This document shows, one piece after another, positions 1-33,119 of a stretch of DNA of 64,000 nt; position 1 is the first letter of the stretch; each line of letters starts with the position of its first letter. Source of the stretch: a virus (taxonomy: Duplodnaviria > Caudoviricetes); IMG/VR virus record IMGVR_UViG_3300033069_001193, positions 21,783 to 85,782 of that record. One strand, given 5' to 3'. The notes below the pieces were generated by a model. The model was given only the letters and a program-made list of their open reading frames with translations, made no database searches and was not told the DNA's origin. Made by a program: the position numbers and the translations under genes.

Positions 1-38
1 GAGGATGGTCTGCTTGGTCATTGGCTGGGTCAACCCTA

Positions 39-332
39 TCATACCCCGAGGCCAGTGGTCATTGCATGGACCCGTTCCAAGATCCGCGTGGCCTTCCACG
101 TCGGCTCCGAGTCCTGAGCGCCGTAGTCAGCGTACTTGCGAGCGATAGGATCGAAGTGATCCCGTAGGGCGTCAGGAACCGTCGTGCCCTCTCCGACGGC
201 GCGGAGGGCCTTCTTCAACGCTCCCGTCAGGGCACGGGCAGCGCCCTCGCACTTCATGCTAGCCGTGTACAGCTCCCAGTCATCTCCCGTCTCGGGCAAC
301 TTCCCAACGTCAACAGTCACCTTGACCTTCAC
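39..332 (-). CDS. hypothetical protein
   Basis: ORF; GTG at 332 overlaps the upstream stop (GTGA coupling). Confidence 0.6.
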   Translation of the reverse strand: MKVKVTVDVGKLPETGDDWELYTASMKCEGAARALTGALKKALRAVGEGTTVPDALRDHFDPIARKYADYGAQDSEPTWKATRILERVHAMTTGLGV

Positions 333-529
333 AGCTTCAGCTCCTTTGCGGCCTCGTTGAGCGCTGCATTGAGATCTGTAGCACCACAATTGCAGGGCGC
401 CATGGTCTCCGAATCGTACTCGGTGACGCAGTGATCCGAATGGCGACGGCGGGCACCCTCCAACTTGATCTTGGCTCTCACCATCTTCTCGATCAACTGC
501 TCATACGTGTACTTGGGAATCGTCGACAT
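329..529 (-). CDS. hypothetical protein (small, H/C-containing)
   Basis: ATG at 529 preceded by AAGGAGA Shine-Dalgarno; MSTIPKYTYEQLIEK... Confidence 0.65.
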   Translation of the reverse strand: MSTIPKYTYEQLIEKMVRAKIKLEGARRRHSDHCVTEYDSETMAPCNCGATDLNAALNEAAKELKL

Positions 530-548
530 CGTCTCTCCTTCGTGTGAC

Positions 549-555
549 CTATTTA
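549..555 (+). promoter_or_regulatory. putative late promoter element CTATTTA
   Basis: Variant of the recurring ATANTTA element, 5 nt before the GTG at 561. Confidence 0.55.
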
Positions 556-560
556 AGGCC

Positions 561-851
561 GTGAGCGACACTCAATTGCTTCGTGAGTACGTCAGGTTGG
601 TGCTAGAGATGCCACACCTCGAGCTCGACCCCGCGGGTGACACCGTCGTCGATTTCCGGATTGAGCGAATGCCCATCCCGGAGGAGGCGAGGCGCGCCCT
701 AATGTTGGCCTTCCAACGAGGCGGCTTTGTGGGCGAGTGGCAAGGGCAAGACGTCGTCTTCTCACCAGACGGGGCGCGCCCAGCCGGGCCGGGCGATTCT
801 GGGCTTCTGCGGCTACCAGACGACTGGCAAGCGACTGCTGTCTTCGCCTGA
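561..851 (+). CDS. leader-bearing hypothetical protein (putative virion cargo)
   Basis: N-terminus (M)SDTQLLREYVRLVLE matches the shared leader; lone plus-strand gene between minus-strand genes; GTG start inferred. Confidence 0.65.
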   Translation: MSDTQLLREYVRLVLEMPHLELDPAGDTVVDFRIERMPIPEEARRALMLAFQRGGFVGEWQGQDVVFSPDGARPAGPGDSGLLRLPDDWQATAVFA

Positions 852-855
852 CACA

Positions 856-1377
856 TCAGGCCGCCTCCGCGTCCTCGAAGGCCACATAGGTTCCGTGCGA
901 CCCGAGGCCCTTCCGAACGTGTCCCAAGGACTCGCAGAAGACCAGATACTGTGCCGTCTTCTCCCGGATGGCCGTGACCTCACCGGTGATCGCTTCCTTG
1001 TCCCACAGCTGCCGCTTGAAGGCCACTCGTTGGCCCACGGAATATTGGGGGACCACCCCATGCTGTTGTACCCATGCCTCAACGACCTTTTCATGGATAC
1101 GGTGCCGCAGGTTGACGATCTCATCCAACACGCCGACCAGCGAACTGTCTGAATCCCACATGTGGCGATTGTCGAGCTCCTTGGCCACCTCGTAGCCGTC
1201 GTCGTGAAAGCGACAGGCGCTCGTCAGCTGTTCCAGAATGTCATGTTGCTCCTCGACGGTCGGATCCACACCTCCTCCCGACTTGAGCCACCGCAGTACT
1301 TTGGGCAGCAGGACTCGGGCAATTTCCAGGTCGATCTTTTCATCGTAGTGTGACGGGCGCTTTGCCTCTTCATTCAT
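856..1377 (-). CDS. hypothetical protein
   Basis: 173-aa ORF; start overlaps the dnaE-C stop (ATGA). Confidence 0.75.
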   Translation of the reverse strand: MNEEAKRPSHYDEKIDLEIARVLLPKVLRWLKSGGGVDPTVEEQHDILEQLTSACRFHDDGYEVAKELDNRHMWDSDSSLVGVLDEIVNLRHRIHEKVVEAWVQQHGVVPQYSVGQRVAFKRQLWDKEAITGEVTAIREKTAQYLVFCESLGHVRKGLGSHGTYVAFEDAEAA

Positions 1378-2777
1378 GCGATCACCTTCACCTTGAATTT
1401 GGCCGTCGACAGACCGTATTCGTCACGACGAACTTCCGCCACGCACAGCTTGAACGGTTCGGGCAGCTCCTTGCAACCCCACAGCGTCAAACGCAGGGGC
1501 TTGCCGATGGGACCGGTGACATAGGCCTGAACGTATTCCTTACCGTTCTTCGTCTTCTTCTTGACGCCAGCAGAAGGGGCAGCGCCCTTCTTACCAGCGG
1601 CCAGGACGGTAACGAACCAGACGATGTCAGTCTGGCCCGTCTCTAGGTCCTCGATCGCTCTGACGTCTTTCTCGTCCAACCTCTCGAAGATGAAGGGATC
1701 GAACATCATAGTGACATCGGCGGTGCCGAAGAGTTCAGCCTGGAACTCAACGAGTTGACGCTGGGTCCACTCGGCACCATAAGGCTCGGCCAGTCCTCGG
1801 GCCAGAGCATAGAAGTTCTTGAGGCCCTCGTGTGGATCTTTCCTGGTGGAGCGCTTGATGAGCGCATTGTGGTCCCTGACACGAACCTTGGTCTCCTCAG
1901 ATCCCTTGCGGACAGGTACCGTCTCCTCGTAGCTGCCCAACAGGGTCTCGTACATGTGTCGGTACGACTTAAAGACCTTGTCGGGGCCGATGCAGTTCAG
2001 GCTGTCGAAGGCACGCACCTTGATGAGGGCCTCCAGGGCCTTGCGGTTGAACTTCGACGGGCGCCAGGTGCCGTCCTCATTGTAGAGGAGCTCCTCAATC
2101 GTCTTCGGTGGGCGAGCAGAGCGCCGCATCTCTTCGAGTTCTTCGATCGCTGAATCACCGACGCCCTTGATCGACGTGATGCTAGGCATCAGCTTCTTGC
2201 CAGGAAGGACGCGCCAGCTGACAGTCGCATAGCTCACGTCGACGGGCACGATCTGATAGCCCAATGCACGTGCCTCGCCGAAGGCCTTAGCTCGTTGATC
2301 AGGACTGTGCGACATCGACTCCAGATATGCCGACAGCCACTGTTCTTCGTAGTACGTCAGTAGCCAGGCGCACCAGTAGGAGTCGATGGCGTAAGCTACC
2401 GCGTGCGACTTGTTGAAGCCGTAACCAGCGAAGAAAAGGATCTTGTCGTACAGGTTGTTGGCGACGCTCTCTGCGTAACCGTTAGCGATGCAGCCTTTGA
2501 CGAACCCGTCTCGGGTTTCCTGGGCGGCCTTCTTGGCCGCCTCGCCGCCCGAGATGCTGCGCTTCATGATGGCCCGACGCACCTCGTCGCACTTCTCCTT
2601 CGGGAAGCCGGCGACCTTCTCGGCCAGTTCCATCACCTGCTCCTGAAAAATTATACAGTTGTGCACGAGAAGGCCATTTGCGAAGAAGTTATGGTTCTTC
2701 TTGACCTGGATGTCGTACACGGGCTGCACCGGAGCGCGCTTGATTGCGCGAATCTTGACAGGAACTACGTCAGGCAT
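1374..2777 (-). CDS. dnaE: DNA polymerase III alpha, C-terminal part, fused to the C-half of a split intein
   Basis: ATG at 2777 with GAGGTGG SD; 40-aa IntC ending VHN then CIIFQEQVM; intact FAGYGFNKSHAVAY motif, HhH region and OB-like C-terminus. Confidence 0.92.
   Translation of the reverse strand: MPDVVPVKIRAIKRAPVQPVYDIQVKKNHNFFANGLLVHNCIIFQEQVMELAEKVAGFPKEKCDEVRRAIMKRSISGGEAAKKAAQETRDGFVKGCIANGYAESVANNLYDKILFFAGYGFNKSHAVAYAIDSYWCAWLLTYYEEQWLSAYLESMSHSPDQRAKAFGEARALGYQIVPVDVSYATVSWRVLPGKKLMPSITSIKGVGDSAIEELEEMRRSARPPKTIEELLYNEDGTWRPSKFNRKALEALIKVRAFDSLNCIGPDKVFKSYRHMYETLLGSYEETVPVRKGSEETKVRVRDHNALIKRSTRKDPHEGLKNFYALARGLAEPYGAEWTQRQLVEFQAELFGTADVTMMFDPFIFERLDEKDVRAIEDLETGQTDIVWFVTVLAAGKKGAAPSAGVKKKTKNGKEYVQAYVTGPIGKPLRLTLWGCKELPEPFKLCVAEVRRDEYGLSTAKFKVKVIA
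2658..2777 (-). mobile_element. split intein C-terminal half (IntC, 40 aa)
   Basis: MPDVVPVKIRAIKRAPVQPVYDIQVKKNHNFFANGLLVHN: block F (VYDIQV), block G (HNFFANG...VHN), Cys at +1; basic overall. Confidence 0.92.
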
Positions 2778-3249
2778 CGTCCACCTCGACAATATCGAAC
2801 TCATCGAAGCAACACACTTCTTGATCGAGCATGCCGTCTTTCAAGCCCTCAAAAAGACCCGAGCCCGTGTTACGATTGTAGAACATCGCATCATTGTCAC
2901 GATAGTCATCGATGAGCTTCACTTCGGTCCCCTCATCGAACCACTCTCCGGGACGAGAGACGTATTTGACCCGTTTAGCTGGTTGTAGAGCCGTAGATGA
3001 AAAGAAGCCTTCCACACCATCACGCATCATCTTGACGTGAACAATTCTCTCGTTAAGATGGTCTGTTTGCAGACGTTCACCCTCGTCAACTACCCTGATC
3101 ACGTTGGAACATGCAGTTGTCTTCTCTACCCACAGTGGGTCAAGAGGTGACGGATGATGTGGACACGCATGCCAGTCGTGTTGACGTTCACGCTCGAGCA
3201 GGCAAAACACACCCGTCAGGTGCGTGTAGCAAACAACGTAATCCTTCAT
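2770..3249 (-). CDS. hypothetical protein lying between the dnaE halves
   Basis: 159-aa ORF whose stop overlaps the IntC start region (ATGCCTGA); possibly two fused small units. Confidence 0.6.
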   Translation of the reverse strand: MKDYVVCYTHLTGVFCLLERERQHDWHACPHHPSPLDPLWVEKTTACSNVIRVVDEGERLQTDHLNERIVHVKMMRDGVEGFFSSTALQPAKRVKYVSRPGEWFDEGTEVKLIDDYRDNDAMFYNRNTGSGLFEGLKDGMLDQEVCCFDEFDIVEVDDA

Positions 3250-3665
3250 TATTCACACTCCTGTTCACGGTAGGCGAAACACGCAGCACAGATATCGCGG
3301 CCAGGCGTTGACGTCCAAAATTTCTCGTGACAATCAACGCACGTTTGTGTTGGACTGCTGAGACCAGTGTGTGACGACATAGAGCGAGACAATACATCAG
3401 CATCCAACACGACCCGACACGGGTTGATCTTCGTGGCCAACGACGACGCGCATAGTTGGCAAACTGGTCCGTGAACAGACAACACACGTTGTCCATGATA
3501 CTCGACTTCCATGTCATTGCCTACTTCCTCATAAGCCCTGAACGTGTCGAACCAATCGGCGTACGTGAGGTCATCACGCTTTCCCACTTCAACATGTGAC
3601 TTCATTGTGTTGATGAAGTTTTGAAATGACGTAAGCAATTCCTTCTCAAAGTCCTCGATCTTCAT
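3249..3665 (-). CDS. hypothetical protein with CxxC pairs, between the dnaE halves
   Basis: 138-aa ORF abutting its neighbours; CQLC, CVDC and CAAC motifs. Confidence 0.55.
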   Translation of the reverse strand: MKIEDFEKELLTSFQNFINTMKSHVEVGKRDDLTYADWFDTFRAYEEVGNDMEVEYHGQRVLSVHGPVCQLCASSLATKINPCRVVLDADVLSRSMSSHTGLSSPTQTCVDCHEKFWTSTPGRDICAACFAYREQECE

Positions 3666-3667
3666 GC

Positions 3668-4408
3668 CTAAATTGTCCTCAATTTGTGTGGATAGTTCAC
3701 GGCCTCAGATTCCCAAACACGCCTCACCATGTAACCACGTGCCTCTGCAGCACGAGTGAATGATTCGTCGAGTCGATACTGTCGCTTCATCTTGGACGTC
3801 AATTCGTGTTTAGCACGGTTGCCGTGCCAATAGTCACCGTCAAATTCGACGAGCAAATTCTCAATCGGAACGTAGAAATCAAACTCATGATTGATGCCAT
3901 CGATGCGATGCTTGTGAACGACGTTATCACCATGCACCTCAATCATCTTTGTTTTGAACGCCAATTCCGCTTTCGAATTTCGCTTACGAGGAGGTTGATT
4001 ACGTAGACCAGCGCTGATCTTCAGCGAGTGCTCTTCAAAGAAGCCAGGCTCATGTGACTTCATGTGCCACGTCAATCCACGCTGACGCTTGCAAACTTTG
4101 CCACAGATCGTACACGCAATAGATTTCTGTTCTTCAGTCGCTGAACAGTACGATCGATGCGATCGCAGCGATGTGTTTGACGTGAAAACCTTGCCACACG
4201 CATCGCACAGAAATTCCCCTTCTTTCCTGACGTTCTCACGGAGTTTGGTAACGTTGAGCTTAGCGATGTGCTCGTCTGTGAACTTTCGACCTTTGTACGT
4301 TTGTCGACGCCATTCTGACAAACACTTGACGCTACATGCAACCGAACGTTCATTTCTTGTCGAATACGTCTTTCTGCACGTCTGACATTTCCTCTCTAGT
4401 TTGCTCAT
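3668..4408 (-). CDS. free-standing Vsr-like (EDxHD-type) homing endonuclease with C2H2 zinc fingers
   Basis: C-terminal HEFDFYVP..LLVEFDGDYWH...VRRVWESE (Vsr/DUF559-like); N-terminal CxxC...CxxxC and two C2H2-like fingers; ATG at 4408; lower GC than flanks. Confidence 0.82.
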   Translation of the reverse strand: MSKLERKCQTCRKTYSTRNERSVACSVKCLSEWRRQTYKGRKFTDEHIAKLNVTKLRENVRKEGEFLCDACGKVFTSNTSLRSHRSYCSATEEQKSIACTICGKVCKRQRGLTWHMKSHEPGFFEEHSLKISAGLRNQPPRKRNSKAELAFKTKMIEVHGDNVVHKHRIDGINHEFDFYVPIENLLVEFDGDYWHGNRAKHELTSKMKRQYRLDESFTRAAEARGYMVRRVWESEAVNYPHKLRTI

Positions 4409-4730
4409 CTTCCAGCGCTGCTCCTGAAAGATAAGTATAGTCCTTGATCGAGAGGATTTCGTCATCAAGCGTAAGCTGCCCGGCCTTGATCCATCCACGT
4501 TGCGTCATGACGAGATGGTCTGCCGTGAGTTTGATGACTCCTACATCAGTGTCAAGCTCAATCACTTCTTTCACACCATTGCAAACCGCCGCAACGATTT
4601 CATCCTGCTCGAGCTCGCCAGTCTCCTCGTTGTACGAAGGAAGCGTGACACCGACCATTTGTTGATCAACGATTTCCTTGATCGTGAATTCACCGTAGTC
4701 AGTCATCACTTTCGCATCCCCCGTCAAACA
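4350..4730 (-). mobile_element. split intein N-terminal half (IntN, ~126 aa)
   Basis: CLTGDAKV (block A) ... TADHLVMTQRGWIKAGQL (block B), then an acidic tail and a stop, with no terminal His-Asn. Confidence 0.92.
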
Positions 4731-7250
4731 GGAGAACGTCTTCTTCAGGATTTCATTGATGCGCTTGTCGCCCCATTCGATCTCCTTGCCTTCGTTCTTC
4801 GCCTCGAGGTACAGCTTGTCGACCTTGGCGGCAAGAGGACCTGGACGGTAGATCGACGTCAGGGTCGCGATGTCGATGACGCTCTTGGGTTGAGCCCTCA
4901 CGAAGAGACGCTGTGCGCCGGTTCCGGTGCACTGGAAGATACCAGCCCAGCGGCCCCGAGCGTAGACCTCATAGGGCTTGGGATCATCGAAGTTGATGAC
5001 GTTAGGCGCCAGGTGCGTTTCGTACCAGGCCTTGATCTGGTCGAAGGTGGGCGTCGGATTGCCTTCCTTCATCAGGATGAGCTCGATGGTTCGCTCGATG
5101 AGCCGCATCGTCTCCAGGCCCAGGAGATCGTACTTGATGAACTCGCCCACCTTCTCCAGGTGCTTGTAGTTCACGCCCTCGACCCAGGGTGACTGCGGTT
5201 CACGAACGTCGCCCTTCCCCTTTGACGTGACCAGGGGCATCTTGCTGGGCAGGTCGTCGGCGATCAACACGCCACCGGCGTGGCGACCCAGCGACCTGTT
5301 CTGCTTGAAGAGCACCTTGATGGACTCGGCGACGACCGGATTCCGGTCGATGAAGTCGCGAAACGACGGGCTGACGGGTTGCGTGCACTCGTCGGTGCAA
5401 CCCGAGCAAATGGGACGAGCGTTGGGCTCGTGGCGCTTGGCGCAGACAAAGGCCATCGCGTCGTCGTAGGTGAGGACGAACAGGTTCTTGTCGTCGCCTT
5501 CCTTAGTCGTGGCCTTGCGTACCTCGTCCTCGACGGTGCGAGTGGCCGCGTTGGTCTCCTCGAAAGAAACACCGTAGAACTTCCCGATGTCTTTCACGAG
5601 GGTTTTCAATTTGAACGTATTGTAGTTCGAGATGGGGACAACGTTCTCCCAACCGAAGAAGTCACGCAGCTGGGCCAGAACCTTGTCACGATCGGCCAGA
5701 TCGGTGTCGATGTCTGGCGCGCCCTTCCTATAGACGCTGAGGAAGCGGGCAAAAGGCAGATCCCAGAACAACGGGTCGAGGTCGGTGATGTAGAGGACGT
5801 AAGCGACCAGCGAACCGCCGCCCGAACCGCGCGCAGGGCCCACCAGGCACACTTTTCGCGCGAGCTCCATGATTTTCTGGTAGCTGATGAAGTACACCGC
5901 GTTCTTCATCGCCTTGATGACGCCCAGTTCCTCCTTCAGGCGGGCAACGTACTCTGGCTTGTCCTGAAGCCCGCGCTTAGTCAAGCCGACCTTGCACAGG
6001 TCAACCAGGTGGTTAAAGGGTGTGGTCCCCTCGGGCACCAGAAGCTTGGTCGGAAACTTGGGTGACCGGTCAGGAGGAACCTCCCCAATGACCTGGTGTG
6101 CGATGTCGTGGGTCCGCTCGATGGCCTCGCACACTAGCTCGTCATCGTAGAACGACGTCCCCACCTTTGACTTCAGGTACTCATCCCACACCTGAGCGGC
6201 ATTCTTCGGGTACAGCTCACACTTCAGGTCGTCCTTCGACTTAGGCAGCGACTCCGGATCGTAGGCCGCGTAGTTCATGAAGCCGAGCTTCTTGTAGAGC
6301 TCGCGGTCCTTCCAGCGATCGGGATGGTAGTAGTGAGCATCACAGGTGACGACTAGCTGCTTGGTCGTCCCAGCCCGACGGGCGAACTCGATGATGGCTC
6401 GGTTGACCAAGTTCTGGGCGGGCAGCCGATTGAACTGCAACTCCAGGTAGTAGTTGCCCACACCGACCGCACTGGTCATCTGGTCGTAGACGTTGCCGAT
6501 GCCCGCAATGCACTTCTCGAGCAGCAGCGGGTCGTCGAGCAACTTCTCCGAGAAGTCATCGAACTTGATCTTCTGGAGCTCTTGGAAGACGGCATAGGCG
6601 GGCATCCCGCCGATGCAGGCGGAGGAGACGACGATGTTGCCTTCTTTACCTGCCTCACGCAGCACCTTCCAGTCGATGCGGGGGAAACCGTAGAAGCCCT
6701 TGAGGTACGCCTTGGAGCAGGCAGCGAAGATGCTGAGCAGGCCTTTTTGGTTCTTGGGCAGGACGACCAGATGGTGCCGACGCTTGATGGGATTGAAGTG
6801 TTTGGTCGACTTGGTCTCGTCCTCATTTTCGATGGTGAGGGCGTTGGTCATCTCGATGTCTTCGGTCTCGTCATTGCCGTCGACGATGGCAATGACCTTC
6901 GTTGCGAGCTTCTCCTGCTCCTTGGCCAGCTTCTCAGCCGCCTTCTTGTCAGCCTTCGCCTGCTCGGCCGCCTCGACGTGGCGTTGCCACTCTTCGAGGT
7001 CAGGGTGGTAGTAGGCCTCCACCCCCGGGATGTACTTGAAGTGCTTGTCCTTGTTGGCCTTCGCCCAGTCCTCGACCCACAACTGCGCGTGGGCATAACT
7101 CGACATGTTCCCATGCTCAGTGATGGCATGGGCGTCGAGTCCATTTTCCATGCAAAACTTAAAGTGATCATCAGGATACCCGAGTCCATCAAAACTCGAG
7201 AACATCGTGTGATTGTGAAGGCCAACAAACCGGTTCGGAGCTCGACTCAT
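4350..7250 (-). CDS. dnaE: DNA polymerase III alpha, N-terminal part (PHP + palm), fused to IntN
   Basis: LHNHTMFS, AITEHG and VVTCDAHY PHP motifs; GPARGSGGGSLVAY; PDIDTD; GRHAGGV; KYDLLGL; ends in IntN. Confidence 0.95.
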   Translation of the reverse strand: MSRAPNRFVGLHNHTMFSSFDGLGYPDDHFKFCMENGLDAHAITEHGNMSSYAHAQLWVEDWAKANKDKHFKYIPGVEAYYHPDLEEWQRHVEAAEQAKADKKAAEKLAKEQEKLATKVIAIVDGNDETEDIEMTNALTIENEDETKSTKHFNPIKRRHHLVVLPKNQKGLLSIFAACSKAYLKGFYGFPRIDWKVLREAGKEGNIVVSSACIGGMPAYAVFQELQKIKFDDFSEKLLDDPLLLEKCIAGIGNVYDQMTSAVGVGNYYLELQFNRLPAQNLVNRAIIEFARRAGTTKQLVVTCDAHYYHPDRWKDRELYKKLGFMNYAAYDPESLPKSKDDLKCELYPKNAAQVWDEYLKSKVGTSFYDDELVCEAIERTHDIAHQVIGEVPPDRSPKFPTKLLVPEGTTPFNHLVDLCKVGLTKRGLQDKPEYVARLKEELGVIKAMKNAVYFISYQKIMELARKVCLVGPARGSGGGSLVAYVLYITDLDPLFWDLPFARFLSVYRKGAPDIDTDLADRDKVLAQLRDFFGWENVVPISNYNTFKLKTLVKDIGKFYGVSFEETNAATRTVEDEVRKATTKEGDDKNLFVLTYDDAMAFVCAKRHEPNARPICSGCTDECTQPVSPSFRDFIDRNPVVAESIKVLFKQNRSLGRHAGGVLIADDLPSKMPLVTSKGKGDVREPQSPWVEGVNYKHLEKVGEFIKYDLLGLETMRLIERTIELILMKEGNPTPTFDQIKAWYETHLAPNVINFDDPKPYEVYARGRWAGIFQCTGTGAQRLFVRAQPKSVIDIATLTSIYRPGPLAAKVDKLYLEAKNEGKEIEWGDKRINEILKKTFSCLTGDAKVMTDYGEFTIKEIVDQQMVGVTLPSYNEETGELEQDEIVAAVCNGVKEVIELDTDVGVIKLTADHLVMTQRGWIKAGQLTLDDEILSIKDYTYLSGAALEDEQTREEMSDVQKDVFDKK
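4432..4438 (-). promoter_or_regulatory. putative late promoter ATACTTA for the endonuclease
   Basis: Exact element embedded in the IntN coding tail, 23 nt before the ATG at 4408. Confidence 0.55.
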
Positions 7251-7861
7251 TCTTGTTTCAAGATACCATAGTTTTTGGTCTTACTACACTGCAGGTACTT
7301 TTGAGCGTTCACCACAAATTTAGAATCCTCCACGACAGCAAGCTTCAGATTGCACGGTCTACAAAGCAGTCCACGGATCTGACCAGACGCATGATCATGA
7401 TCAACTGCAATGTTGTCTTCTGTCAGAAGATTTTCGCACAGGGGACAACGATCCGATTGCTCACTTGAAATCGTGTCATATTCCTTCTTACCAATTCCGT
7501 AACGCTGGATGCGTCTACAAAACACCGGCGACGGCGCGCACGAGTGACAGTAGATCTGATTCCCAGATTGCGGGGTGTATTCATCGCCACATTGTTTACA
7601 CGACTTGACAGGATGCGTCCGATTCCTGATCGCTGAAAGGTGCTTCTCAGACTGCGCATTTCGCGATCGCTTAAGCTCAAAGCGATGGATTGCGTAGTGG
7701 ACTTGGCCAAGAGTCAAGTCTAGACCGCGAGCAAGAAGCAATTCACGGATTTCAGCAGCAGATCGACATTCATTGAGGTACCAGACCGTGATATTGGTAC
7801 GAAATGCGTCAAGCTGTTCTTGTTGCTTCGCCCTGGCAGTGTTACGGTTTTTGGCGCCCAC
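7247..7861 (-). CDS. endonuclease VII-type HNH homing endonuclease
   Basis: CPLC...AVDHDHASGQIRGLLCRPCN EndoVII signature; stop overlaps the dnaE start (ATGA); lower GC. Confidence 0.85.
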   Translation of the reverse strand: MGAKNRNTARAKQQEQLDAFRTNITVWYLNECRSAAEIRELLLARGLDLTLGQVHYAIHRFELKRSRNAQSEKHLSAIRNRTHPVKSCKQCGDEYTPQSGNQIYCHSCAPSPVFCRRIQRYGIGKKEYDTISSEQSDRCPLCENLLTEDNIAVDHDHASGQIRGLLCRPCNLKLAVVEDSKFVVNAQKYLQCSKTKNYGILKQE

Positions 7862-8116
7862 AAGGTGACATTGTACTACCCGAAGTGGGAAAACTGCACC
7901 ATCAGTCCATTCCCGTAGATCTCTTGACGGCGTTCAAGAGGTCATAGTGCTCGCTGACAAATCAACCCTTCGTCATTACAATAACGACGTCACCTAAGGA
8001 CAACAATGACGTGGTCCGACGTGGGCCTATTCAAGTTGAGCGGCTACAACTCGTGTAGGAGAGCTAACGTCTCATCGCTTGACTTGTCGAACGGTTTACG
8101 CAGCAGCGTTCGTGGA

Positions 8117-8434
8117 TCACAAGTCATCGACGTCAGTCGGTGACGCTCCCTCATTCTTTTGTCCATCTTTCTTCTCTGCTTCAGCCACGCCCGGGAGGAC
8201 AAGCGCCAATGACGTTACGAAGGCTGTGAACAGCCCAGCACCAGTCGTGACGCTAGTAAAGTACTGTGCAACAAGAGGCAAGTCAAGGACAAGTACGGGA
8301 AGAGAGATCGAGAGCCACCTTGGCATCTTGGCCCAGAACGGCCTGAATGCGACAATAAGCTTCGTAGCAGCGAGCGCGCTCGCTGAGACGTATGATGCGA
8401 TGTCAACGGGGGTTAGATTCTCAGGAGCGTTCAT
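8117..8434 (-). CDS. small membrane protein, holin-like
   Basis: Two to three hydrophobic segments, charged C-terminus, late-type element upstream; holin function is inferred only. Confidence 0.5.
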   Translation of the reverse strand: MNAPENLTPVDIASYVSASALAATKLIVAFRPFWAKMPRWLSISLPVLVLDLPLVAQYFTSVTTGAGLFTAFVTSLALVLPGVAEAEKKDGQKNEGASPTDVDDL

Positions 8435-8439
8435 GCTCC

Positions 8440-8446
8440 TAAATAT
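8440..8446 (-). promoter_or_regulatory. putative late promoter ATATTTA
   Basis: 5 nt upstream of the ATG at 8434. Confidence 0.55.
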
Positions 8447-8499
8447 CTAACCAACCTTGCCTTCACACTGCACGCTTCTCACAATCTCTTTGACATTTT

Positions 8500-9465
8500 T
8501 CACTTGACGATCTCTCTAAAATACTTGATCGAATGACTTAGACCTTCGGCGAGCATCACTCGAGGCTCCCACTTCAAGATCTCTTTAGCCTTCGTGATAT
8601 CAGGACGACGTTGAAGTGGATCGTCAACTGGCAACGGCAGTACCTCTAGCTCAACTTCCTTGTCTACCACCTTGCAGACCTCATCTGCGAGCTCCTTGAC
8701 GGTAAATTCGACAGGATTTCCCAGGTTGATGGGTCCCCCGGGGTTCGCTGACAGTTCACCCATCGCCACGATCCCACGAATCAAGTCATCAACGTAGCAA
8801 AATGACCGGGTCTGTGCGCCAGTACCGTAAATTGTCAGCTTTTCACCGCGGAGTACCTGACAGATGAAATTGCTGACGACTCTGCCGTCTCGGGGGTCCA
8901 TGTGCGGTCCGTAGGTGTTGAAGATCCGGACCGTTCGAACGTCTGCCCACCGATGTGACCAAAAGTCGAAACACAGGGCCTCTGCTGCCCGCTTGCCTTC
9001 GTCGTAGCAGGCACGAGGACCATACGAATTGACGTAGCCGCGGTAACTCTCTTCTTGCGGTGACTGGTCGGGGTCACCATAGACCTCAGACGTTGAGGCG
9101 TGGACGACAACGGCACGCGCCGCGGCGGCCAGCTCCAGGACATTCTTGGTGCCCGCCACGCACGTCATCAGGGTGTGAACAGGCATCGCCTGGTACTTGG
9201 GAGGGGAAGCAGGACAGGCGAAGTTGTAGATCAGATCGAACTTGACCCTCTTGATGCTTTGTCTCCACCCACCTTCGAATGTGCTGATGTCTCCTGTCAG
9301 GAAGGTGAAATGATCGTACGAGAGCAGCTCTCGATAGTGATCGCTACCCCTACTCGACGAGCAAAAGTCATCTACACCCCAGACCCGGTCACCTGCGCGC
9401 AGGTGATGCAGCGCCAGGTGTGAACCTAGGAAGCCAGCAACACCGGTCACCAAGACGTTCTTCAT
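8500..9465 (-). CDS. UDP-glucuronate decarboxylase (UDP-xylose synthase)-like extended SDR
   Basis: TGVAGFLG Rossmann motif, ACPASPPKY, ASTSEVYGDP, YDEGKRAAE, RIFNTYGP, SFCYVDDL. Confidence 0.88.
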   Translation of the reverse strand: MKNVLVTGVAGFLGSHLALHHLRAGDRVWGVDDFCSSSRGSDHYRELLSYDHFTFLTGDISTFEGGWRQSIKRVKFDLIYNFACPASPPKYQAMPVHTLMTCVAGTKNVLELAAAARAVVVHASTSEVYGDPDQSPQEESYRGYVNSYGPRACYDEGKRAAEALCFDFWSHRWADVRTVRIFNTYGPHMDPRDGRVVSNFICQVLRGEKLTIYGTGAQTRSFCYVDDLIRGIVAMGELSANPGGPINLGNPVEFTVKELADEVCKVVDKEVELEVLPLPVDDPLQRRPDITKAKEILKWEPRVMLAEGLSHSIKYFREIVK

Positions 9466-31117: not shown

Positions 31118-32101
31118 TCAGTCGCTGGTCTTCACCTGTAGGCCGGTGATGCAGCGGAACGTAGAGAAAAAGTCTTCAGTATCAAAGTCGCCGATCCCCT
31201 CCCTGACAAGGACGCGAATCATGCCGACTCGATCCATTCGTGGGACGAAGTCCTTGATCCTCTGGTCGATAACCAGCCGTTGATGTGCCGAAATCATGCT
31301 GCCGTCGAGGTAAACCAAACGCCAGTTACGCCTGACAGCGACCTCGTGTTCTAGGATGCGCTTGTATAGCCGCGATTCGTCAACGTGAGCGTGAGCGTAG
31401 CTGATGACGTCCTGCAAGATGACGTCCTGCTCGGTTCCCAAGAACGGAAACACGCGGGCGACAGTCCGGAAGCCAACGCCCTTGACACCAGGCACGTTGT
31501 CGCCTGGATCACCGCACAACGCCTTGGCAAGGGCAAAGTGCTTCGCTTGGACACGGAACTCTTCCATCACTGTTTCCTTAGTGACGAAGGTCTTCTTCTG
31601 AAGACTGTAGAGGCGGGCCTTGTCGTCCAGCAACTGGTACAGGTCCTTGTCAGACGAAACGATGACCTTGTCCACGCTACGCATTGGACCACAACACAAG
31701 TGGGCAACTAGATCATCTCCCTCACAATCGGGGGCGTACAGCTGGCAAACGGGTGTACACCGCGTCATCTGGATCAGCGTCTCGATCTGGTGCTTGCGGT
31801 TCTCCTCTGAATCTGGGAGATCATCACCATAAAATCGATTCAATCGATCAGGCGCACGGCCCAACTTATACTCAGGCAGCAACTTCCGGCGGCGAGACGA
31901 GCCACCACCTTCCCAACACACGTAGATTGCCGACGGCTGAACCTCGTAGGTGATCCTACGTAGCGTCTTCAGAAAGCCGATGCAACCACCCATCTGATAG
32001 CCATGTGCTGACATGGTCGGGTAGGCGCAGTAGCTCCTGACAAAAAGATTGAGCGCATCCACAATAACTACAGGCCTTTGTACTTTTTCTTCCGTTGTCA
32101 T
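31118..32101 (-). CDS. 5'-3' exonuclease / flap endonuclease (T4 RNase H / PolA N-domain-like)
   Basis: IVDALNL, CEGDDLV, SSDKDLYQL, GDPGDNVPGVKGVG. Confidence 0.92.
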   Translation of the reverse strand: MTTEEKVQRPVVIVDALNLFVRSYCAYPTMSAHGYQMGGCIGFLKTLRRITYEVQPSAIYVCWEGGGSSRRRKLLPEYKLGRAPDRLNRFYGDDLPDSEENRKHQIETLIQMTRCTPVCQLYAPDCEGDDLVAHLCCGPMRSVDKVIVSSDKDLYQLLDDKARLYSLQKKTFVTKETVMEEFRVQAKHFALAKALCGDPGDNVPGVKGVGFRTVARVFPFLGTEQDVILQDVISYAHAHVDESRLYKRILEHEVAVRRNWRLVYLDGSMISAHQRLVIDQRIKDFVPRMDRVGMIRVLVREGIGDFDTEDFFSTFRCITGLQVKTSD

Positions 32102-32126
32102 AGCACGTACCTTATACTATCTACTC

Positions 32127-33119
32127 ATGCCTGCCAAGATCAACCTCTCCGAAGAAACAGTTGATGAGATGTGCTCGCTGTTCCGAAGTGGGACTAGCAT
32201 CCCAGAACTGATGCAGAAATACGATCTGTCACGTAACAAAATCACCAAGACCCTTCGTGATGGCCTCGGCGACAAGTATAAAGAATGCGCCTTGCGAGTA
32301 CTTGCCAGTACAGGCGCCAAAGGCGCGTCCAAACGCAGGGGCAAACCCAATCCACGCACGCCCGAGTGGAATGCCAAGATCGCTGCTAGCAATAAAGGTA
32401 AGCACCACACCGAAGAGACGAAGCAAAAGATCAGTGAAGCAAGCCGGACACGTTTCGAGCGTGGCACTTGGTCCAAAGAAGGACACGCCGAGGCCATGCA
32501 GAAGGCCGCACAGACCAAACGAGACAACGGTTACTTCAAGCTTCACTCACAGCGTCACTCTGAATGGATGAAGTTGTATGCTCCGATGCGTGGAAGGCAT
32601 ATGTCAGAAGAATCACGACAAAAAATGCGTGATGCTAAACGAACTTTTTTTGACTGTGGTGGTGTGCCGTCTCAATTTGGCATCAAACGTACTCAAGAAC
32701 AAAAACAGAAAATTGCTACACACACCAAGCGCATGTGGGCCGAAGGTAAGTTCTCCTATGGAGATGGTTCAGTGATGCGCAGCAAGCTCGAAAAGCGAAT
32801 CTTCGAGCAGATCCTTGCTGTTTTTCATGACGCTCAACACTCGCGGTGGCTGACGGTTGACGACACGACTTACGTCTTCGACGCTTACGTGCCATCACTG
32901 AAAACATTCGTCGAAGTAAATGGCGACTACTGGCACCTCAGCCCGCGCCTGTACGAAGCCTCGTACTTCGATGCCCACCGCGGCATCACCGCACAAGAAG
33001 TATGGGACCGCGATGAAAACAAGCGAGCAGCGGCACGTTCATTGGGTTACAGAGTGGTGACAGTATGGGAAAGCGAGGCGTTGCAGTTCGATCCTGCGAT
33101 CATCGTCCCAGGATCTTGA
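32127..33119 (+). CDS. free-standing homing endonuclease (NUMOD3 repeats plus Vsr-like domain)
   Basis: KGKHHTEETKQKISEA and RGRHMSEESRQKM NUMOD3 repeats; VFDAYV...EVNGDYWH...VVTVWESE; divergent orientation. Confidence 0.85.
   Translation: MPAKINLSEETVDEMCSLFRSGTSIPELMQKYDLSRNKITKTLRDGLGDKYKECALRVLASTGAKGASKRRGKPNPRTPEWNAKIAASNKGKHHTEETKQKISEASRTRFERGTWSKEGHAEAMQKAAQTKRDNGYFKLHSQRHSEWMKLYAPMRGRHMSEESRQKMRDAKRTFFDCGGVPSQFGIKRTQEQKQKIATHTKRMWAEGKFSYGDGSVMRSKLEKRIFEQILAVFHDAQHSRWLTVDDTTYVFDAYVPSLKTFVEVNGDYWHLSPRLYEASYFDAHRGITAQEVWDRDENKRAAARSLGYRVVTVWESEALQFDPAIIVPGS

Follow-up and report, generated by a model that had tools for sequence, protein, structure and literature searches.

A fractured phage dnaE gene predicted to be rejoined by a naturally split intein around a Vsr-like endonuclease gene

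Introduction

How could one polymerase be made from a gene that lies in two pieces? The question is raised by a 64,000-nucleotide (nt) stretch of phage DNA (the window; bases 21783-85782 of the 85.8-kb IMG/VR record IMGVR_UViG_3300033069_001193), in which dnaE, the gene for the α subunit of DNA polymerase III (Pol III), is broken into two genes, dnaE-N and dnaE-C, whose facing ends resemble the N- and C-terminal halves of an intein (IntN and IntC). CheckV puts the completeness of the record at 25%, implying a genome of ~340 kb. The window, nearly all of whose genes are on the minus strand, also codes for two tail-sheath-like proteins of ~1000 amino acids (aa), a ribonucleotide reductase and a DnaB-like helicase, and a DNA search of GenBank phages returned no close relative (best matches ≤3% of the query). 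Genes broken in this way were defined as fractured genes by Dassa, London, Stoddard, Schueler-Furman and Pietrokovski in 2009 (PMC2677866). We consider it very probable that the two products are joined by protein trans-splicing and that the cassette interrupting dnaE is maintained by a regulated homing endonuclease.

Results

dnaE-N (4350-7250; minus strand, like every feature of the locus given below) encodes 966 aa with PHP, Pol III α and finger domains. Its N-extein of 840 aa (4731-7250; Pfam PF02811, PF07733 and positions 8-116 of the finger profile PF17657) covers the PHP domain, the Pol III α core and the first two thirds of the finger domain and ends in ILKKTFS, after which the protein runs on as CLTGDAKVM. 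dnaE-C (1374-2777) reads ..VYDIQVKKNHNFFANGLLVHN, then CIIFQEQVM. The C-extein, 427 aa plus stop from Cys+1 (1374-2657, Cys+1 codon 2655-2657; PF17657 positions 113-160 and PF14579), starts with CIIFQEQ and comprises the remainder of the finger domain, in which GYGFNKSH is intact, the helix-hairpin-helix (HhH) and the C-terminal region. Since the two halves share the finger profile, the break lies inside one domain. Both extein open reading frames (ORFs) run their full length without a frameshift or premature stop. When the last 177 residues of dnaE-N were used as a query against 5.8 billion proteins (P-numbers denote the protein clusters from the search, L-numbers IMG/VR loci or contigs), intein-free homologues could be placed across the break: the N-extein (1-840) aligns with residues 1-839 of intein-free P0027 at 80% identity, and the C-extein (1-427) with its residues 840-1263 at 71%. 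The exteins are thus collinear with P0027, and the predicted spliced DnaE would neither gain nor lose residues at the junction, where P0027 reads KKTFS|CIIFQEQ and both P0025 and P0027 carry ..ILKKTFSCIIFQEQVMELAEK.. without an intein; the exteins abut exactly on P0025 and P0234 too. The tryptic junction peptide expected of spliced DnaE is TFSCIIFQEQVMELAEK. Independent assemblies repeat the lengths and ends of both ORFs (P0002-P0005, P0122-P0130), with 966-968 aa for dnaE-N and 463-467 aa for dnaE-C.

The product of dnaE-C is 476 aa long from its first ATG (2804) and 467 aa long from Met10 (ATG 2775-2777). Met10 is most likely the true start, which gives a 40-aa IntC, because it is the start chosen by the gene caller (P0121, 467 aa), it has a GAGG Shine-Dalgarno box 4 nt to its 5′ side, and the IntC of relatives begin at the same place.

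The IntN core (4443-4730) is 96 aa long, from Cys1 (codon 4728-4730) through block B with TADH, and is followed by an acidic tail of 30 aa plus stop (4350-4442, stop codon 4350-4352; DYTYLSG...DVFDKK), recognized from the sequence and from relatives. IntC (2658-2777) has block F as VYDIQ and block G as LLVHN, and ends in VHN directly before Cys+1. Both halves were delimited by sequence matches to the Protein Data Bank (PDB) and by alignment with the cluster P0012. IntN matches the Spl DnaX mini-intein (7cfv, E 1.4e-11) and NrdJ-1 (8ubs, E 3.1e-8), and IntC matches the same two (7cfv, E 3.3e-7, with 19 of 32 aligned residues identical; 8ubs, E 0.0046). In allele sets of at least 24 IntN and at least 32 IntC protein clusters (at 90% identity), Cys1 and TxxH are kept in 24/24 IntN clusters, and the block F Asp, HN and Cys+1 in 32/32 IntC clusters, in alleles that are just 48%-60% identical elsewhere. 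All IntN in these sets are acidic (net charge −7 to −20) and all IntC basic (+1 to +7); in the window the IntN core carries −12, the tail −5 and IntC +4. Judged by Cys1, TxxH, the block F Asp, HN|C and the homology of both halves to HINT domains, the pair is a class-1 intein. Each half belongs to an ORF of its own, IntN closing with a stop codon and IntC opening with a start codon, and the break falls at the position of the endonuclease-domain loop, so that by sequence the intein is a naturally split one, and the intein match of both halves together with the continuity of the finger profile is not what chance would be expected to give. Together, the invariant splicing residues, the exact collinearity of the exteins and the charge complementarity are strong indirect evidence that the intein most likely splices.

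The preliminary description of this locus had located Cys1 at position 4730 and a 40-aa IntC, with His-Asn followed by Cys, at the start of dnaE-C; both hold, the second from the Met10 start. Its estimate of ~1.6 kb between the halves agrees with the 1545 nt (to ATG 2804) or 1572 nt (to ATG 2777) from the dnaE-N stop to the dnaE-C start. It had also named TFS|CIIFQEQ, and not the cyanobacterial position, as the site, which the intact GYGFNKSH bears out; the Pfam break position puts this site in the finger domain. The exact abutment on P0027 supports its view that splicing would restore a normal junction (KKTFS-CIIFQEQ), and the charges agree with the acidic IntN tail and basic IntC that it described.

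The 30-aa tail occurs in the window and in P0001-P0005, P0007 and P0011, and is missing in L012 and L038, where the IntN stop precedes the endonuclease control region. In the window, the DNA coding for the tail holds this control region and the first 19 endonuclease codons in another frame, and the tail may be regarded as a by-product of the IntN frame running through it.

Relatives show the same codon boundary in three states: empty, occupied by a contiguous mini-intein of 138 aa, and split with an endonuclease gene. The search with the end of dnaE-N found ~20 clusters of dnaE-N fragments with a related IntN at the same boundary, and a contiguous mini-intein of ~138 aa at the site in three clusters (P0010, P0012 and P0024). 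On P0012, residues 604-700 are the counterpart of IntN 1-96 (60% identity) and residues 705-741 that of IntC 4-40. The facing ends are 4 residues apart there, which places the split in a loop of 4 residues that separates block B from block F of the mini-intein. This loop is the usual seat of intein endonuclease domains. The split form probably arose when the site was already occupied by a contiguous mini-intein, whose loop was then invaded by a free-standing endonuclease gene.

Between the halves lies a free-standing gene of 246 aa (3668-4408, ATG 4406-4408; Pfam zf-C2H2, PHROG 3339 “homing endonuclease”), whose product consists of an N-terminal part with a zinc ribbon and two C2H2 fingers and a C-terminal EDxHD or Vsr-like nuclease domain (EFDGDYWHG). 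An exhaustive HMMER search found many homologues of 250-330 aa. When these were aligned, no variation was seen at E188, D190, W194 or H195, and at least 90% of 31 homologues share D214; Pfam recognizes DUF559 in 12/31 and Vsr in 10/31. Foldseek matched an AlphaFold2 model (predicted local distance difference test score 91.6) to the I-Bth0305I catalytic domain (3r3p, probability 1.00, template modelling score 0.56) and to E. coli Vsr (1cw0/1vsr, probability 1.00). On these conserved residues, Pfam matches and the modelled fold, the gap gene is assigned to the Vsr-like (EDxHD) homing endonuclease family, as the preliminary description had surmised; fractured genes were the source of the original description of this family. 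By analogy with the family, E188, D190, H195 and D214 would be its catalytic residues, and its product is presumably an active endonuclease. Two more ORFs of the record resemble the nuclease or zinc-finger part of this protein (E 1e-8 and 3e-7), one at 32850-33089 of the window, within a plus-strand ORF (32049-33119), and the other outside the window (G000:6838-7338), so the phage carries several related free-standing endonuclease genes.

A promoter-like motif, ATACTTA (4432-4438), lies 24 nt upstream of the endonuclease ATG. The window contains 11 copies of its general form, ATA[CG]TTA (ATASTTA), where 1.3 would be expected (~8-fold enrichment), with 10/11 on the coding strand and ~6 of these within ~35 nt upstream of a gene start (example sites: 12032, 29609, 52026, 55357, 56985, 60479 and 63558). 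Both tail-sheath genes are among those preceded by it, and it is probably a late-type promoter element of the phage. Folding further predicts a 12-bp RNA hairpin (4404-4435) with the endonuclease ATG in its 3′ arm and a folding energy of −15.7 kcal/mol (z −3.2; none of 200 shuffles as good). The hairpin is kept in L012, L038 and L095, whose endonucleases share just 43%-67% protein identity, and two of its pairs are preserved by changes on both sides; presumably it is regulatory. An Rfam scan of window positions 1-9000 found no match. The sequence TTTCAGGAGCAG, common to the DNA upstream of the endonuclease gene and to the start of the C-extein, was considered as a duplicated target site or an autoregulatory operator and set aside as less likely, because these bases are the 5′ arm of the hairpin, fixed by pairing with GGAAGAUGAG, and because the apparent co-variation fails in L012.

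Two smaller ORFs complete the gap, and neither matches Pfam or the PHROGs. The product of orf138 (3249-3665) has CxxC pairs in a Cys-rich C-terminal part; a counterpart at the same place in L082 is 87% identical over residues 1-79 and is broken by an extra ORF of 105 aa. orf159 (2770-3249) and dnaE-C have 8 nt in common where the stop of the former meets the start of the latter (ATGCCTGA). For orf159 there are full-length homologues in P0396-P0398 (75%-89% identical) and a shorter one in P0399. The longest contigs listed for P0399 and for the split DnaE-C P0125 are both 54,089 bp long, so the two probably lie on one contig. dnaE-C is translationally coupled to orf159 and has a good ribosome-binding site. 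None of the three gap genes (the endonuclease gene, orf138 and orf159) shares the frame of IntN, and neighbours meet by short overlaps or a 2-nt gap. The GC content is 0.46-0.51 over positions 3000-4500, compared with ~0.58 in dnaE. The gap differs in content among relatives: in L012 and L038 it holds the endonuclease gene alone (insert 1323-1325 nt), in L009 it is ~600 nt longer, and in L095 (a 340-kb contig) a Gly-rich ORF of 296 aa and an opposite-strand ORF of 359 aa stand between IntN and the endonuclease gene.

dnaE is unbroken in 71 of 80 related IMG/VR loci and broken in nine. The site of the window is occupied in L009, L012, L038 and L082, to which a separate scan added L095, and the split layout recurs in L009, L012, L038 and L095. 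In a quick tree of the flanking extein, built from 175 columns beside the site with L009 and L082 excluded and open to distortion by gene conversion, the four split rows that could be used are spread over the tree, which requires four changes, and the nearest neighbours of the window (89% identical) have no intein. In L082 the IntN is 55% and the IntC 92.5% identical to those of the window, and the endonuclease gene is truncated; the unequal identities point to recombination inside the cassette. A scan of 185,579 species genomes for the exact junction only, HN|C-x-x-[FY]-Q-E-Q, gave 8 chance matches and none in a cellular dnaE.

Several relatives carry other breaks. In L082 (9965-22022 of IMGVR_UViG_3300037010_002844, a 309-kb contig), dnaE lies in at least seven same-strand ORFs, with split-intein halves at residues ~475, 508, 515, 772 and 840, one intervening extein of 7 aa (SGAPDID), and intein-like tails without Cys1 at ~731 and ~930. 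Interspersed among these ORFs are several endonuclease genes (321-599 aa), of which one runs in the opposite direction. In L002 (7989-15402 of IMGVR_UViG_3300033075_001734), dnaE is in three pieces and the site of the window is unbroken: a split intein at APDID|T encloses ~2.1 kb of unrelated gap genes, including a P-loop protein and a methyltransferase-like ORF, and the break at ~residue 731, which holds a Vsr-like endonuclease gene, lacks splicing residues, so that a dead intein may serve there as a clasp. The N terminus of P0012 itself reads ..LVHN|C, which marks the close of another split intein, inserted in the PHP domain. P0047 and P0057 are further phage dnaE-N fragments; their terminal IntN is attached at GYGFN|C, so that three residues separate it from the site used in cyanobacteria. 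Related split inteins occur in other viral loci (L083-L094, L097 and L098; IntN 37%-43% and IntC 59%-73% identical to those of the window), and related IntC stand on C-terminal fragments of ribonucleotide reductase of 334-350 aa (P0213-P0233), so that this intein lineage is found in more than one host gene.

Next to the locus, an ORF of the Endonuclease VII family (204 aa, 7247-7861, minus strand) shares 4 nt with the start of dnaE-N, and L002 has a homologue in the corresponding position. Its product may be either a resolvase or a further free-standing homing endonuclease; the homing endonuclease F-CphI uses an Endo VII motif (PMC6083498).

Discussion

In the mechanism that we propose, the finger-domain coding region is interrupted at a single codon boundary by a mobile cassette, composed in this order of IntN, the endonuclease gene, the two small ORFs and IntC. 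Two polypeptides would be made, the 840-aa N-extein with an acidic IntN and the basic 40-aa IntC with the 427-aa C-extein. Drawn together by their opposite charges, the intein halves would form a single HINT domain. Splicing would follow the class-1 route, in which Cys1 undergoes an N-S acyl shift, the thioester passes to Cys+1, the terminal Asn cyclizes and an S-N shift completes a DnaE of 1267 aa with the junction KKTFS-CIIFQEQ. The endonuclease would be under its own control, for which the region coding for the IntN tail supplies the promoter-like motif and a hairpin with the endonuclease AUG hidden in its stem. Given this placement, read-through transcripts from dnaE-N, in which the hairpin is intact, should translate the endonuclease poorly, and transcripts from the internal promoter, which would lack the 5′ arm, should translate it well. 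The cassette probably spreads by gene conversion driven by the endonuclease.

Some points weigh against this proposal. Splicing and endonuclease activity are predictions from sequence and model; a second, intact polymerase gene could lie in the three quarters of the genome beyond the record; IntC scores 31.5 bits against the Pfam profile Intein_splicing, below its cut-off of 35.8; the 30-aa tail of IntN is an unusual feature that may bear on splicing; and the scattered occurrence of the split is read from a short alignment that gene conversion could have distorted. The main alternative, which we think unlikely, is that the intein halves no longer splice and act as a non-covalent clasp joining two polymerase subunits. 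Such an arrangement has a precedent in Aeh1 NrdA, which is reported to work as two non-spliced pieces (PMC3045599), and at ~residue 731 of the dnaE of L002 and L082 the intein-like tail upstream is without Cys1 and the piece downstream without HN. In the window, however, Cys1, TADH, the block F Asp, HN and Cys+1 are all present, and they are invariant across the 24 and 32 diverged alleles, a pattern to be expected from selection for splicing and not for binding alone.

It is also conceivable, with a still lower probability, that dnaE is decaying or dispensable, another polymerase replicating the phage while the pieces are being lost. The record holds about a quarter of a ~340-kb genome, so that other polymerases, including a second intact gene, could lie elsewhere; the gap has gained extra ORFs, and indels occur in relatives, as does a truncated endonuclease gene. 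Yet the exteins are full length, free of frameshifts and internal stops and as similar to an intact homologue as given above, the record yields just one Pol III α match, and dnaE-C keeps its ribosome-binding site and its coupling to orf159. It is hardly credible that faulty assembly or sequencing has made a split out of one contiguous large intein with an in-frame endonuclease domain. This reading has in its favour the single point that the window comes from one metagenome contig, whereas the gap ORFs lie in frames other than that of IntN and meet at short overlaps or a 2-nt gap, products of the same size recur in several independent assemblies, and the layout is repeated in L009, L012, L038 and L095.

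Trans-splicing of a polymerase whose cassette is maintained by a regulated homing endonuclease is thus the reading that we prefer. More tentatively, and with rather less than even confidence, we suggest that the whole cassette moves as a unit into intein-free or mini-intein dnaE genes, carrying the cargo genes of the gap along, and that dnaE is a cassette hotspot in this clade, with the at least five intein-bearing breaks of L082, a close relative, in mind, one of which holds the same intein as the window. If this is true and all the L082 breaks splice, they would be a natural set of mutually orthogonal split inteins that assembles one polymerase. The occurrence of one codon boundary in three states offers a natural series for testing the 2009 model in which an endonuclease invades a mini-intein, and the gap genes here, with the bigger gaps in relatives, illustrate a way for the two halves of an essential gene to start drifting apart. 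The split-intein family is well populated and apparently uncharacterized; the pair of the window may be a new orthogonal split intein, and the family is a reasonable candidate for protein-ligation tools.

Comparison with known systems

The finger domain is a hotspot for Pol III α inteins in cellular genomes (Novikova et al., PMC4760082). Papers on the jumbo phages PaBG and MIJ3 were considered and put aside, since they concern other polymerases. Like the pair of the window, the cyanobacterial split DnaE inteins Ssp and Npu are split class-1 inteins in the Pol III α finger domain, with Cys1, Cys+1, an acidic IntN and a basic IntC. The site of the window, however, lies ~85 residues upstream of theirs, where GYGFNKSH is intact; its halves are adjacent on one strand with an endonuclease gene, whereas those of Ssp and Npu are at separate loci; and the sequences match only marginally (Ssp DnaE IntN at E 0.55 and Npu IntC at E 0.02-0.09). 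The nearest solved inteins by sequence, Spl DnaX (7cfv) and NrdJ-1 (8ubs), are also distant. Residues 3-112 of 7cfv align with IntN and 106-137 with IntC, so that the two halves jointly span nearly its entire 137-aa chain, at identities of ~32% for IntN and ~59% for IntC as taken from the printed alignments. Their host proteins differ too, Spl DnaX being a clamp loader with a contiguous intein and NrdJ-1 a ribonucleotide reductase. None of the inteins tested by Pinto et al. (2020) was a DnaE intein. The preliminary description had allowed that near-identity to a characterized intein would lessen the novelty of the pair; at these distances, it is not the re-discovery of a laboratory intein.

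The nuclease fold predicted for the C-terminal domain of the gap enzyme resembles that of I-Bth0305I (PMC3239194; 3r3p), a characterized EDxHD member. I-Bth0305I sits in a group I intron of a phage recA, whereas the gene of the window is free-standing inside a split intein, and its N-terminal part, a zinc ribbon with C2H2 fingers, is unlike that of I-Bth0305I.

The closest parallel is offered by the fractured genes of Dassa et al. (2009). In these too, two same-strand ORFs of a replication gene carry split-intein halves at the break and have a Vsr-like gene between them, the ORFs overlap, a hairpin and a promoter-like element lie 5′ of the endonuclease gene (a hairpin and late-promoter-like element at 15 of 16 loci), and the source is phage or metagenome DNA. 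Three of those loci are fractured dnaE genes with split inteins at non-cyanobacterial sites; the site of the window matches them at that level and may be one of the three. In this respect the preliminary description overstated the novelty of the locus, whose family is, moreover, common in metagenomes. Some details differ. The promoter element given there is TATAAATA and that of the window ATA[CG]TTA; the 30-aa IntN tail that overlaps the endonuclease control region is peculiar to the window in this comparison; and the text of the paper names no C2H2 fingers in its Vsr-like endonucleases, whereas the enzyme of the window has them. Furthermore, the 3′ end of the endonuclease gene overlaps IntC in 15 of the published loci, but not in the window, because two ORFs intervene and orf159 overlaps IntC instead. 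The overlap is present in the relative L038 (32 nt), and it is a frequent and not a defining feature of fractured genes. The window fits the description of a fractured gene in all main respects and is a new example of a layout known since 2009, one that extends the known picture and leaves the current understanding unchanged.

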